In this document: positions 891 to 6,578 of the stretch, one piece after another
How the letters are laid out: every line of letters starts with the position of its first letter
Position numbering within the stretch: position 1 is the first letter of the stretch
From: a virus
Taxonomy: Duplodnaviria > Heunggongvirae > Uroviricota > Caudoviricetes
Virus record (IMG/VR): IMGVR_UViG_2778261352_000001
Span: 1,199-65,198 of that record
Reading direction: 5' to 3' (one strand)
DNA length: 64,000 nucleotides
Notes under the pieces: model-generated
Database searches by the model: none
What the model saw: the letters and a program-made list of their open reading frames with translations, nothing else
Told to the model about the DNA's origin: nothing
Translations under genes and position numbers: made by a program

Positions 891-1522
891 GTAAAACAAC
901 ACCTACTAAAGACAGTATTCGTGCAGAGTTTGAAGAGCTTGTCGAGAAAGATTCATTCTGGTCGAAGTTTGTCGGCTCTCAATTTGTCTCGATGCTGACA
1001 TTGTTTATTACCCAGATTGTCTACAGGTGCTTTCAGTATGCCGATGCGGCGCTGGCTGAAGGCTTTATATCGACCGCGACGCGGCGTTCTTCTATCCTGG
1101 CAGCGGCAGAAACGAATAGTTACGTTGGTACCAAGCCAACACCGTCATCGGGGATGATTGAGATCACCGCCACAAGTGAAGATGCCCCAGCGGTAATCCC
1201 CAAAAACATGCCTTTAATATCTGACGACCAGTATCCTTACATGACTATGGATGTATGCAGGTTGGTTGACGGCACCGGTACGGTAGAAGTGGCACAGTTG
1301 GAAATCCAGGAGGTGACATATACCGTTAAGGGGGCAGTGGTGCCTTTGACCCCCTCAACGAACAATAGTTATTTCTCCTTAATCAGAAGTATGGTGACAG
1401 AAAGAACAGATGGCGCTGTTTACCCAAAAGTGATAGGTCTTGATGCTTCAAGAATTGTTCCAACTGCAAACGAAAACCGTCCTCGTAACATTGCGTTTAA
1501 TTACATCGTAAGGGCGGAATAA
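887..1522 (+). CDS. tail-fibre locus protein ending in the cassette-type C-terminal motif RPRNIAFNYIVRA
   Basis: 211 aa; last ~27 aa nearly identical to C-terminus of cassette at 5034..5495; stop TAA 1520-1522 lies inside the crossover site. Confidence 0.55.
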   Translation: MSKTTPTKDSIRAEFEELVEKDSFWSKFVGSQFVSMLTLFITQIVYRCFQYADAALAEGFISTATRRSSILAAAETNSYVGTKPTPSSGMIEITATSEDAPAVIPKNMPLISDDQYPYMTMDVCRLVDGTGTVEVAQLEIQEVTYTVKGAVVPLTPSTNNSYFSLIRSMVTERTDGAVYPKVIGLDASRIVPTANENRPRNIAFNYIVRAE

Positions 1523-1541
1523 AAACGTTGGTTTAGGAGAA
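1516..1541. other. invertase crossover site (hix/gix/cix/mix-like), + orientation: GGAATAAAAACG-TT-GGTTTAGGAGAA
   Basis: 26-bp imperfect palindrome AAAACG-TT-GGTTT matching recalled Hin-family site consensus (about 18/26 to hix); same core occurs 7 times inverted downstream. Confidence 0.6.
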
Positions 1542-1562
1542 GGCTCTGCGCTGCCCGTTGGT

Positions 1563-1991
1563 GTGCCTGTTCCGTGGCCCTCAGCCACACCACCAACGGG
1601 GTGGCTGAAATGTAACGGAGCAGCATTTTCTTCTGAAAAGTACCCAAATCTGGCAAAGGTTTACCCAACGTTAAAATTACCTGATTTACGCGGTGAGTTT
1701 ATCCGTGGTTGGGATGATGGGCGAGGTGTGGATGCGGGAAGGGGCATCTTAAGCATACAGGGGTGGTTAACAGGAAGTCATTATCATAATATTCGGTCAT
1801 GGGACGCGTGGGATAACACGGTATTGGTGCCAAATGACAGAGGGGGGGATAGTCTGTTGTCGACAGATAACGCCGTCCAAGAAGGAGCGATTAATGGTAA
1901 ATTTACCAGTCAATACAGAACGGAGTTATCTGGGGGGAATGAAACCCGCCCACGTAACATTGCCTTCAATTATATTGTGAGAGCAGCATAA
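1563..1991 (+). CDS. tail-collar-domain variable cassette C0 (putative receptor-binding tail fibre module)
   Basis: Conserved N-terminal PVPWP..GWLKCNGAAFS..YP..LPDLRGEFIRGWDDGRG (phage tail collar signature), variable middle, conserved C-terminal RPRNIAFNYIVRAA; no ATG (track start is GTG); conserved leader NVGLGEGSALPVGV begins at about 1524. Confidence 0.7.
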   Translation: MPVPWPSATPPTGWLKCNGAAFSSEKYPNLAKVYPTLKLPDLRGEFIRGWDDGRGVDAGRGILSIQGWLTGSHYHNIRSWDAWDNTVLVPNDRGGDSLLSTDNAVQEGAINGKFTSQYRTELSGGNETRPRNIAFNYIVRAA

Positions 1992-2602
1992 TGGATAATG
2001 CGATATTAAATAGCGAACTTATAGCCATACAGGCAGGAAACATTATCGTTTATAACTATGATGGTGGTAATCGGGAATATATTTCTGCATCAACTGAATA
2101 TCTTGCTGTTGGCGTTGGTATTCCGGCAAATTCTTGTTTGGATGCTCCAGGCTCACATAAAGCAGGTTATGCGATTCTCCGTTCAGAGGATTTAAGTTCA
2201 TGGGAGTATGTGCCAGATCATCGTGGCGAAACTGTCTATAGCATTGACACTGGGAATCCCGAAGAAATCACGGTGTTGGGTGACTATCCGGAAAATACAA
2301 CCACTATCGCCCCGCTAACACCATACGACAAATGGGATGGAGAGAAATGGGTGGTTGATACTGAGGCTCAACATAGTGCAGCTGTAGAGGCAGCAGAAAC
2401 AAAACGTCAGTCATTGATTGATACTGCGATGGCTTCCATTAGTCTGATTCAGTTGAAATTACAGGCTGGACGGAAGTTGACACAGGCCGAAACCACACAG
2501 CTTAACTCCGTGCTAGATTATATAGACGAGCTGAACGCGATGGATTTAACCACGGCACCAGATCTCAACTGGCCTGAAAAACAACTTTCTGCAGCCAGTT
2601 GA
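1991..2602 (+). CDS. tail fibre assembly chaperone (Tfa / U-like)
   Basis: 203 aa; start overlaps cassette stop (TAATG); C-terminal region resembles Tfa/U family (..TAPDLNWPE). Confidence 0.65.
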   Translation: MDNAILNSELIAIQAGNIIVYNYDGGNREYISASTEYLAVGVGIPANSCLDAPGSHKAGYAILRSEDLSSWEYVPDHRGETVYSIDTGNPEEITVLGDYPENTTTIAPLTPYDKWDGEKWVVDTEAQHSAAVEAAETKRQSLIDTAMASISLIQLKLQAGRKLTQAETTQLNSVLDYIDELNAMDLTTAPDLNWPEKQLSAAS

Positions 2603-2607
2603 TATAA

Positions 2608-3075
2608 TTAATCCGCCCTCACAATATAATTAAATGCAATATTACGAGGGCGGGTTTCTAAGCCAGCAGTACCTAAATTAGCTACGGACTGTTTATATGT
2701 TTTAAAGGTTCCATAATTAGGGGCTGGCAATCCTGCATCGCTTGTGTTCCCCCATCTGATAACTCCTGTATTACCACTAGTAGCCCATGCCTCGTCAAAG
2801 TAGAAATTAATTGAGCTGTCAGTTGCTACGGTTGATTTTGACGGTAATCCGTGAGCATGATCCTCCGTTGCATATCCTTGCCCACTTAAAATAGAGCGAC
2901 CAGTGTCAATCCCTCGCCCATCATCCCAACCACGGATAAACTCACCGCGTAAATCAGGTAATTTTAACGTTGGGTAAACCTTTGCCAGATTTGGGTACTT
3001 TTCAGAAGAAAATGCTGCTCCGTTACATTTCAGCCACCCCGTTGGTGGTGTGGCTGAGGGCCACGGAACAGGCAC
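2608..3075 (-). CDS. tail-collar variable cassette C1
   Basis: Same conserved N- and C-termini as C0 with different central region; inverted relative to C0. Confidence 0.65.
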   Translation of the reverse strand: MPVPWPSATPPTGWLKCNGAAFSSEKYPNLAKVYPTLKLPDLRGEFIRGWDDGRGIDTGRSILSGQGYATEDHAHGLPSKSTVATDSSINFYFDEAWATSGNTGVIRWGNTSDAGLPAPNYGTFKTYKQSVANLGTAGLETRPRNIAFNYIVRAD

Positions 3076-5021: not shown

Positions 5022-5040
5022 AAACCAACGTTTTTATGCC
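5015..5040. other. invertase crossover site, inverted orientation
   Basis: core AAAACG-TT-GGTTTAGGGGAA on minus strand. Confidence 0.55.
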
Positions 5041-5495
5041 GCCCTTACGATATAATTAAAGGCAATATTACGAGGACGGTTTTCATTAGCTGTTGGCACG
5101 ACACGAGAGGCGTCGAATCCAAGGTCATCGGTTTTGCCTATATCAGTTGTGTTATTCGGCATTCTCGCAGATCGTGTTCCTGCATCATAAAAAGCCCCTC
5201 TGATTGCATCAAAAGACATGCCGGTCCCACCATCTGCGAACCCCTCAATATTTCTTATTGCATCCCCCTGTGAAGATAATAATTGTCGCCCGGCATCCAC
5301 ACCACGCCCATCATCCCAGCCACGAATAAATTCACCGCGTAAATCAGGCAATTTATTTGTCGGGTAAGCCTTTGCCAGTTTTGGGTACTTTTCAGAAGAA
5401 AATGCTGCACCATTGCATTTCAGCCAGTCCGTTGGTGGTGTTTCTAAGGGCCACGGAACGGGCACGCCAACGGGCAATGCTGAGCCTTCCCCCAA
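5034..5495 (-). CDS. tail-collar variable cassette C6
   Basis: Conserved termini; C-terminal FDASRVVPTANENRPRNIAFNYIVRAA shared with the gene at 887..1522. Confidence 0.65.
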   Translation of the reverse strand: MGEGSALPVGVPVPWPLETPPTDWLKCNGAAFSSEKYPKLAKAYPTNKLPDLRGEFIRGWDDGRGVDAGRQLLSSQGDAIRNIEGFADGGTGMSFDAIRGAFYDAGTRSARMPNNTTDIGKTDDLGFDASRVVPTANENRPRNIAFNYIVRAA

Positions 5496-5511
5496 ACCAA
5501 CGTTTTCATGC
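5486..5511. other. invertase crossover site, inverted orientation
   Basis: core AAAACG-TT-GGTTTGGGGGAA on minus strand. Confidence 0.55.
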
Positions 5512-5934
5512 TGCCCTTACGATGTAATTAAACGCAATATTTCGAGGACGAATGGTTACATAATTAACCCCATCACCTCGTGAAGGCCCTGCAAATGAAA
5601 AACGGGAAAAGCCTGGTTGGTTAGAAACAATTTGGTCATAGTTATTGATTGAATGACCAGACCCAATGTCGAAATTACCTCCGTAATGAGAAAAACTTGT
5701 ACCATCCTGCCCTGAAAGCAGGGTACGTCCCGCATCAATCCCGCGCCCATCATCCCAGCCACGGATAAATTCACCGCGTAAATCCGGTAATTTATTGGTG
5801 GGATAAGCCCTTGCCAGTCTGGGATACATTTCAGAAGAAAATGCTGCTCCGTTACATTTCAGCCACCCCGTTGGCGGTGTTTCTAAGGGCCACGGAACGG
5901 GCACGCCAACGGGCAATGCTGAGCCTTCCCCCAA
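5506..5934 (-). CDS. tail-collar variable cassette C7
   Basis: Conserved termini; central region related to C5 (..NQPGFSRF..). Confidence 0.65.
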   Translation of the reverse strand: MGEGSALPVGVPVPWPLETPPTGWLKCNGAAFSSEMYPRLARAYPTNKLPDLRGEFIRGWDDGRGIDAGRTLLSGQDGTSFSHYGGNFDIGSGHSINNYDQIVSNQPGFSRFSFAGPSRGDGVNYVTIRPRNIAFNYIVRAA

Positions 5935-5951
5935 ACCAACGTTTTAGTCTT
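5926..5951. other. outermost invertase crossover site, inverted orientation, adjacent to invertase gene
   Basis: core AAAACG-TT-GGTTTGGGGGAA on minus strand, about 55 bp from the invertase start. Confidence 0.55.
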
Positions 5952-6005
5952 AATCCCTACCTATACCAACGATGTATTTTTAACTAAACAAAGAGGTTGT
6001 TTTTC

Positions 6006-6578
6006 ATGCAAATTGGCTACATTCGTGTGTCAACAAATGACCAAAACACAGATTTACAAAGAAATGCACTGAACTGCGCAGGATGTGAACTGATTTTTGA
6101 AGATAAAATAAGCGGAACAAAGTCAGCCAGACCAGGCTTGAAAAAGCTGCTCAGAACGTTATCAGAAGGAGATACGCTGGTTGTCTGGAAGCTGGATAGG
6201 CTTGGCAGAAGTATGAAACACCTTATCACGCTTATAGAGGAGTTGCGGGAAAAAGGTGTTAATTTCCGTAGTCTGACAGACAGTATTGACACATCAACAC
6301 CCATGGGGCGTTTCTTTTTTCACGTCATGGGGGCTTTAGCAGAAATGGAACGTGAACTAATTGTTGAGAGAACGCTGGCCGGACTGGCAGCTGCACGCGA
6401 ACAGGGACGCATTGGCGGACGTCGCCCGAAGTTGACAAAAGAACAACATGAGCAAATAGCGAGGTTGATCGAAAATGGCTACAGCAGGAAACAGTTGGCA
6501 ATTATTTACGATATCGGTGTATCGACGATTTATCGTTATCATCCTGTAGAGAAGCGCCAAACTCAATCTGAGCTGTAA
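6006..6578 (+). CDS. serine DNA invertase, Hin/Gin/Cin/Pin/Min family
   Basis: MQIGYIRVSTNDQNTDLQRNAL..GDTLVVWKLDRLGRSMKHL..GRIGGRRPKLT: catalytic Ser motif and C-terminal HTH typical of the family; ATG at 6006 preferred over track TTG at 5997. Confidence 0.95.
   Translation: MQIGYIRVSTNDQNTDLQRNALNCAGCELIFEDKISGTKSARPGLKKLLRTLSEGDTLVVWKLDRLGRSMKHLITLIEELREKGVNFRSLTDSIDTSTPMGRFFFHVMGALAEMERELIVERTLAGLAAAREQGRIGGRRPKLTKEQHEQIARLIENGYSRKQLAIIYDIGVSTIYRYHPVEKRQTQSEL

Follow-up and report, generated by a model that had tools for sequence, protein, structure and literature searches.

A multiple-inversion array on a P1-like phage-plasmid

Can an array of eight alternative tail-fibre segments, with an intact invertase gene beside it, still switch the fibre of the element that carries it? 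The question is raised by positions 1516 to 6578 of a 64,000-nucleotide stretch of viral DNA (the window; IMG/VR record IMGVR_UViG_2778261352_000001), where a sequence-only reading had described a 'shufflon-like' set of tail-collar cassettes that serial inversions would bring, one at a time, to a single expression position. We consider it very likely that the locus is a Min/Pin-type array of a P1-like phage-plasmid, that it was decapitated by a deletion of about 3.6 kb, and that its cassettes are silent.

The source contig is NOOP01000024.1 (assembly GCA_002519675.1), the window starting at its nucleotide 1199. Judged by its sequence, the element carrying the array is a P1-like phage-plasmid: window 500-1331 is 99% identical to the P1 stretch that runs from the end of sit through pmgA into the 5′ part of bplA, and window 7000-31000 has 97-98% identity with hundreds of P1-like plasmids from E. 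coli, Salmonella and Klebsiella. The array lies between bplA and the lydA/darA operon, the equivalent P1 position being occupied by 16, R, S, U, the C-segment and cin.

In the intact system we envisage, the constant 5′ part (Sc) of the fibre gene S would end at a 26-bp site, and a Din-family invertase, with an enhancer in its own gene, would recombine any + site with any − site at the central TT. Each inversion would flip all the DNA between the two sites and so join another cassette in frame to Sc, with a single chaperone gene lying in the central segment between two convergent cassettes. In the window element a deletion of about 3.6 kb has removed Sc and the expression site from this arrangement.

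Cassettes and crossover sites

The cassettes and the chaperone gene are arranged as follows.

1530-1991, + strand: cassette H, a receptor-binding segment of tail-collar type (153 codons plus stop)
1991-2602, + strand: tail-fibre assembly (chaperone) gene, Pfam Caudo_TAP 2.7e-30, 77% identity to TfaE of e14
2608-3108, − strand: cassette G, 166 codons, homologous to StfE of e14
3116-3595, − strand: cassette F, 159 codons
3603-4073, − strand: cassette E, 156 codons
4081-4587, − strand: cassette D, 168 codons
4595-5026, − strand: cassette C, 143 codons, without any possible start codon in the conserved N-terminal part
5034-5498, − strand: cassette B, 154 codons
5506-5937, − strand: cassette A, 143 codons

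Each cassette, whether the single + one or one of the seven on the − strand, has an uninterrupted reading frame of 143-168 codons between the crossover dinucleotide TT and its stop. Their first 77 residues are near-invariant, the middle 55-80 residues are unalignable, and the last 13, RPRN(I/V)AFNYIVRA, are invariant. This paralogy, with a common N-terminal collar block, a variable middle and a conserved C-terminus, had been recognised in the sequence-only reading and is upheld here, as is the collar homology itself, Pfam Collar PF07484 being matched by 8/8 cassettes at E values of about 1e-14 to 1e-15. A profile made from the eight sequences matches, among solved structures, the short tail fibre 9cuy over the whole cassette (4e-22) and the T4 gp37 receptor-binding tip 2xgf (1e-19), and by this homology the cassettes are fibre tips. 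AlphaFold2 applied to cassette H with the eight-sequence alignment gave an unusable model, with a predicted local distance difference test score of 36.

The cassettes had been counted as eight, and here the earlier description needs two corrections: they are 3′ gene segments without start codons of their own, not genes, and a truncated ninth cassette (type X) is present at 1332-1522. We considered, and rejected, independent genes with GTG or TTG starts, given that cassette C lacks any start and the first cassette of the relatives described below is always fused to Sc. For cassette H the sole start candidate is a GTG, 18 nt beyond the GGAGAAGG stretch. The chaperone gene sits where cassette orientation switches, after H and abutting the 3′ end of the convergent G, and because there is no site inside H-tfa-G these three form a single 'pivot' segment.

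The eight 26-bp sites, one before each cassette, are given next.

1516-1541, + strand: GGAATAAAAACG-TT-GGTTTAGGAGAA, the sole + site, internal-type, with the TAA of the upstream open reading frame (ORF) in its left half
3097-3122, − strand: AGCATGAAAACG-TT-GGTTTAGGAGAA
3584-3609, − strand: AGTATGAAAACG-TT-GGTTTGGGGGAA
4062-4087, − strand: CACATAAAAACG-TT-GGTTTAGGGGAA
4576-4601, − strand: GGCATAAAAACG-TT-GGTTTGGGGGAA
5015-5040, − strand: GGCATAAAAACG-TT-GGTTTAGGGGAA
5487-5512, − strand: AGCATGAAAACG-TT-GGTTTGGGGGAA
5926-5951, − strand: terminal site, AAGACTAAAACG-TT-GGTTTGGGGGAA, its left half being the fixed invertase-side end, the same in all relatives

Each consists of a 12-nt left half, TT, and then GGTTT(A/G)GG(A/G)GAA (N12-TT-GGTTTRGGRGAA), that is, two imperfect inverted 12-bp halves around a central dinucleotide, in inverted copies (one + and seven −), as is characteristic of Din-type sites. 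The 13-nt core AAAACGTTGGTTT has eight exact copies, at 1522 on the + strand and at 3104, 3591, 4069, 4583, 5022, 5494 and 5933 on the −, so that the Hin/Gin/Cin-type site before each cassette, and the inversion of the single + site relative to the other seven, are as first described. With up to two mismatches the core has 10 matches in the window against 2.5 expected, a number reached by none of 100 shuffles; the two additional near-core matches, at 27591 and 31497 (two mismatches each), were rejected as further sites, being at chance level. Eight sites delimit seven segments within 1516-5951, the invertase starting at 6006, which is the layout of a multi-site system. The window sites align with the pix sites of e14 and with cixL and cixR of P1, and belong to the same family.

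A deletion between the baseplate gene and the array

What distinguishes this array lies at its upstream edge.

887-1522, + strand: chimeric ORF of 211 aa, 887-1331 being the first 148 codons of bplA and 1332-1522 the last 63 codons of a type X cassette

bplA is a baseplate gene, gp6/J-like. Both flanks can be placed on an intact relative, L001 (plasmid pHNSHP24-3), in which window 1-1331 corresponds to 2502-3832 at 99.2% identity and window 1525 onward aligns with 7395 onward, leaving a gap of 3.56 kb between the flanks; window 1326-1739 corresponds to 4001-4414 of L002 (NZ_AP040955.1) at 87.9%. Lost with two thirds of bplA (codon 149 to the end) are gene 16, R and the P1 late promoter LPs, as well as Sc with the expression site and the 5′ part of the ninth cassette. 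DNA of the 3.56-kb gap is found nowhere in the 64-kb window, and LPs (AAGTTACTTATCTTACAAT), present upstream of R in L001, is absent from window 1-9000. No constant 5′ fibre part ending at a site, the hallmark of Min, was found in the window, whereas the relatives have one.

The junction, ACCGTTA/AGGGGGCAG (the slash marks the join), carries 3-4 nt of microhomology (GTT/TA) and occurs in 0 of 5,426 complete E. coli genomes. Junction and chimeric ORF recur unchanged in two independent assemblies, that of NCBI and the Logan assembly of SRR3975563; the deletion is genuine. An origin by action of the invertase at a quasi-site was rejected, the junction showing the GTT/TA microhomology alone and no resemblance to a crossover site.

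The chimeric ORF ends with a TAA inside the left half of the + site, in a frame that differs from that of cassette H, and 887-1522 is a fixed flank of the array, not an expression site. As there is no Sc, R, LPs or start codon, no cassette is expressible as fibre even if inversion occurs, and the deletion of Sc and the parts upstream thus leaves 8/8 cassettes as silent 3′ gene segments. On these sequence features the window array is a truncated derivative and not a working Min member. The serial inversions first proposed are the right mechanism for the family, but the one expression position they were to serve does not exist here, Sc, R, 16 and LPs having been deleted.

The source contig carries a second deletion in the tail block, its junction lying about 30 bp upstream of window position 1. 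There pmgC is fused to the last ~187 codons of sit, with tub, pmgB and most of sit lost (~4.4 kb in P1), and the window ORF at 46-534 is the surviving 3′ end of sit. A second upstream loss of tail genes in the same contig fits a truly degraded element: this is a degraded P1-like prophage-plasmid, and the array is a headless remnant.

Invertase and enhancer

The invertase gene and its surroundings hold three features.

6006-6578, + strand: Din-family serine invertase of Min type, 190 aa, catalytic Ser9 motif IRVSTNDQ
6024-6100, + strand: presumed recombinational enhancer, lying within the 5′ end of the invertase gene; its function is presumed by homology to the enhancer annotated for Cin in P1
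6714-6977, − strand: residual cin-type promoter with 5′ gene end (89.4% to P1 31570-31832), downstream of the invertase and inverted

That an invertase of the Cin/Min family adjoins the outermost site was correctly read at the outset. Its gene starts 54 bp past that site, the listed TTG start at 5997 probably not being the real one, and the protein has the Pfam domains Resolvase (2.2e-51) and HTH_7 (3.5e-15) of a Din-family recombinase, with Gin (4m6f/3uj3, 4e-92) as its best match among solved structures. It is 81% identical to PinE and 74% to Cin, and identical at 190/190 residues to the invertase of plasmid pMCR_SCKP-LL83. The exact sequence is that of UniRef Q05517_ECOLX and is found on at least 1000 contigs; a large protein search with the invertase returned generic names only.

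The putative enhancer stretch, 6024-6100, has 58/72 positions identical to P1 31678-31749 and aligns without gaps to P1 31684-31754 at 83.1%. Since eight sites, eight intact cassettes, the chaperone, the invertase and an enhancer homologue are all present, the invertase, acting with Fis and that homologue, can probably still invert segments of the array. The remnant at 6714-6977 holds another enhancer-like stretch (6793-6859), which at 89.6% identity resembles the P1 Cin enhancer more closely than does the copy inside the invertase gene. According to the published view, Min took the place of an ancestral Cin system, and 6714-6977 fits this as a relic of the older system. A scan for promoter and terminator consensus sequences gave nothing above chance.

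Intact relatives and the evidence for inversion

The intact arrangement is seen in L001, where sit, pmgA, bplA (477 aa), gene 16, R, S (559 codons), an assembly gene and inverted cassettes follow one another. About 404 codons of Sc read in frame through TTCTTGATTACC-TT-GGTTTGGGAGAA (..SVLDYL/GLGEGSALPVGVPVPWP..) into cassette H, the fusion protein across the Sc site reading ..SVLDYL/GLGEGSALPVG... S has 494-831 codons in intact relatives, with the first site inside it. L001, L004, L005, L006 and L087 all have TTCTTGATTACC-TT-GGTTT in frame as their Sc site; the cassette joined to it varies, and in each of them the terminal half-site AAGACTAAAACG lies next to the invertase.

In L087, plasmid pMCR_SCKP-LL83, each of the eight window cassettes is found again (97-100% in the variable part), together with a further one, in the arrangement Sc-C T12 E A D F G, tfa(−) H(−) B(−), invertase. 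Relative to the window, the order is changed and H-tfa-G is flipped. In a set of ten P1-like loci, the cassette at the Sc half-site is C, G or H, that at the invertase-side half-site is A, B, C, D, F or H, and each cassette end has up to seven different followers. A left half-site always goes with the stop of the cassette before it and a right half-site with the cassette after it, so the exchange is confined to the ~12-nt shared core. Inversion isomers are thus present between relatives, with cassette orders and orientations that differ at breakpoints in the sites and the pivot in both orientations. Prophage contigs of ~20-38 kb show four permutations of one four-cassette set.

Among IMG/VR loci with both genes, chaperone and invertase point the same way in about half and in opposite directions in the rest, and every + site lies on one side of the chaperone and every − site on the other, a pattern expected if only inversion between inverted sites occurs. 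A first impression of a permanently fixed chaperone orientation (+ in the window, as in 4/4 detectable cases among the first five relatives) was discarded as a selection effect, BLAST ranking having favoured query-like arrangements. In E. coli EC958 the Phi2 sites, TCCTCAATTACCTT GGTTTAGGAGAA and GAGAGATAAACGTT GGTTTGGGGGAA, match window sites, and PacBio reads caught both orientations within one culture (PMC4134206).

One chaperone gene serves all the cassettes and flips with the central segment, lying at 8161-8772 in L087. About one isomer in two has it antisense to the S operon, which raises the question of its expression there, and the invariant cassette C-terminus RPRNIAFNYIVRA was raised as a candidate recognition feature for the chaperone.

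Related arrays have 7-11 sites. In L002 (845-3096) an IS21-family element, ISEc10, lies inside the array and truncates one cassette, and in L004 (NZ_LR882977.1) a block of three cassettes, invertase and holin occurs twice (15913-17854 and 12540-14051), the second copy with frameshifted cassettes; either misassembly of mixed isomers or a true duplication could account for this.

Comparison with known inversion systems

The window system is, by its sequence, a Min/Pin-type multiple-inversion array of the Din family, a known kind and not a new one. The Min system of p15B (E. coli 15T-), which the sequence-only reading had rightly named for comparison, is reportedly the work of Sandmeier, Iida, Arber and co-workers in 1990-1992 (GenBank X62121), and with those papers multi-site inversion of tail-fibre tips by a Din invertase became known. 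With it the window shares a P1-like IncY backbone, a locus between the tail-fibre operon and lydA, the same type of site, several invertible segments that overlap, and cassettes of the collar type joined to a constant S part. Min differs in having six sites, against eight here and at least nine before the deletion, and an invertible region of 3.5 kb, against outer sites 4.4 kb apart; in the window Sc and the expression site have been deleted, leaving the array without output.

The repertoire had been thought far larger than that of Min. This overstates a modest difference, eight sites against six, and since public relatives have 7-11, eight sites are ordinary for present-day P1-like plasmids. 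A breadth-first search of the inversion model yields 10,080 configurations for the window's eight sites and 240 for six, the latter being the number of isomers published for p15B (PMC2481393), so that the model is consistent with the literature. The window from invertase to lydA is collinear with p15B X62121 coordinates at a constant offset of ~433 (taken from the P1 RefSeq notes), and it reproduces the identities of 83/89/84/99% listed for p15B in the P1 RefSeq record. In addition, the 5-kb invertible region of pMCR_SCKP-LL83 has been reported to have 99% identity over 92% coverage to p15B min (PMC5786510).

The Pin system of e14 (E. coli K-12) is related through PinE (81%), TfaE (77%) and StfE, the homologue of cassette G, and its pix sites, CTCTCGAAAACC-TT-GGTTTGGGAGAA and TTTTCATAAACG-TT-GGTTTGGGAGAA, are of the same family as those of the window. 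It has two sites, one segment and two chaperone genes (one per orientation), against eight, seven and one, respectively, in the window. The Cin/C-segment system of P1 occupies the same genomic position with a Din-family invertase (74% to Cin), and both it and Mu Gin share with the window 26-bp sites centred on a dinucleotide and the principle of fusing Sc to a variable part, and the window's enhancer homologue likewise lies where the invertase gene begins; those systems, however, are two-state, with variable parts of 1.6 kb and a chaperone per orientation, and their cassettes are unrelated to the collar type of the window.

The name 'shufflon-like' fits the behaviour of such arrays but not the system. 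Like the R64 shufflon the array combines short segments and serial inversions to give alternative C-termini to one recipient-recognising surface protein, an analogy of function only. The shufflon uses the tyrosine recombinase Rci, 19-bp sfx sites and the pilus adhesin pilV; the window has a serine invertase (Resolvase plus HTH_7) and phage tail-collar cassettes, and because shufflons proper use Rci it is not a shufflon in the strict sense.

Alternative explanations

Could the locus nonetheless be an intact, working host-range switch, with ORF 887-1522 or the position downstream of it as the single expression site for the eight modules? One + site against seven −, an adjacent intact invertase and eight intact cassettes look exactly as such a switch would, but we regard this as extremely improbable: ORF 887-1522 is a bplA′::cassette′ chimera that stops within the left half-site in a frame other than that of H, the window has no Sc, R, gene 16 or LPs, start codons are lacking in the cassettes (the GTG of H, 18 nt past GGAGAAGG, being its only candidate), and a collar cassette without Sc has no part that attaches to the baseplate. 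That the missing Sc, or the cassette order, is an assembly artefact of repeats and mixed isomers is scarcely more credible. The array is indeed repeat-rich, NZ_LR882977 has its suspicious duplicated cassette-invertase-holin block, and the contig of the second assembly breaks at the array start; the junction, however, is in unique sequence, where bplA codon 148 meets the variable region of cassette X, two independent assemblies agree on it exactly, and another tail-gene deletion lies just upstream in the same contig. A further view, that the cassette orders come from RecA-dependent homologous recombination between 250-300-bp blocks rather than from the invertase at the 26-bp sites, seems to us very unlikely. 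Blocks of 220-314 nt with 82-92% identity do flank every site, and some gene conversion is suggested by the few variants of the right half-site (A or G at +6) that are not strictly cassette-linked between plasmids. Against this, the junctions of cassette ends with differing followers map to the ~12-nt core around TT, multi-site loci keep + sites on one side of the pivot and − sites on the other as strict inversion predicts, recombination between many direct repeats would delete cassettes, and inversion at the same kind of site has been seen within a culture (PMC4134206).

It is also conceivable, though in our view unlikely, that the headless array is still used, as a cassette reservoir and a source of invertase in trans for co-resident prophages, the exchange proceeding by homologous recombination in the conserved 250-300-bp blocks. 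This view starts from the survival of all eight cassettes, the chaperone gene and the invertase despite the loss of the constant part, and from chromosomal prophage contigs of ~35-40 kb with the same site family, invertases at 95-99% identity and cassettes A, B, F, H, X and T12; the plainer alternative is that the deletion is simply recent. Prophage contigs of this kind (L011-L025 of IMG/VR, parent contigs ~4-38 kb) are of interest in themselves, as the shared types indicate that the cassette pool is seemingly not confined to P1-like plasmids.

A silent, decapitated Min/Pin-type array is the account we prefer, and several points weigh against it. Ongoing inversion in the window element is something we infer from its sequence, and the identity with Min is drawn from a published proxy and the annotation notes of the P1 record. 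The cassette order could be partly a product of assembly if short reads of mixed isomers were the source. That the cassettes and invertase are intact implies either that the deletion is recent or that selection still keeps them, and a displaced copy of Sc could, strictly speaking, lie in the ~30 kb of plasmid outside the window.

Implications

Hundreds of public P1-like plasmids carry such arrays, and the locus matters little as a discovery. A practical point concerns annotation, automatic procedures labelling the 3′ segments as 'phage tail protein' genes and thereby masking both the switch and its decapitation. Arrays of present-day P1-like plasmids, with 7-11 sites, exceed the archetype, and their cassettes, of at least 11 types, come from a shared pool that is seemingly represented in unrelated chromosomal prophages as well. 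The element illustrates the decay of a phage-plasmid to a plain plasmid, in which the genes for the tail tube, sit, the baseplate and the fibre have gone and the inversion module has been left behind. A small trace of a cassette is also found outside the array, past the invertase gene: a 36-nt relic of a cassette 3′ end (TANENCPRNV) at window 6662-6697 on the + strand, 83% complementary to the end of cassette B.

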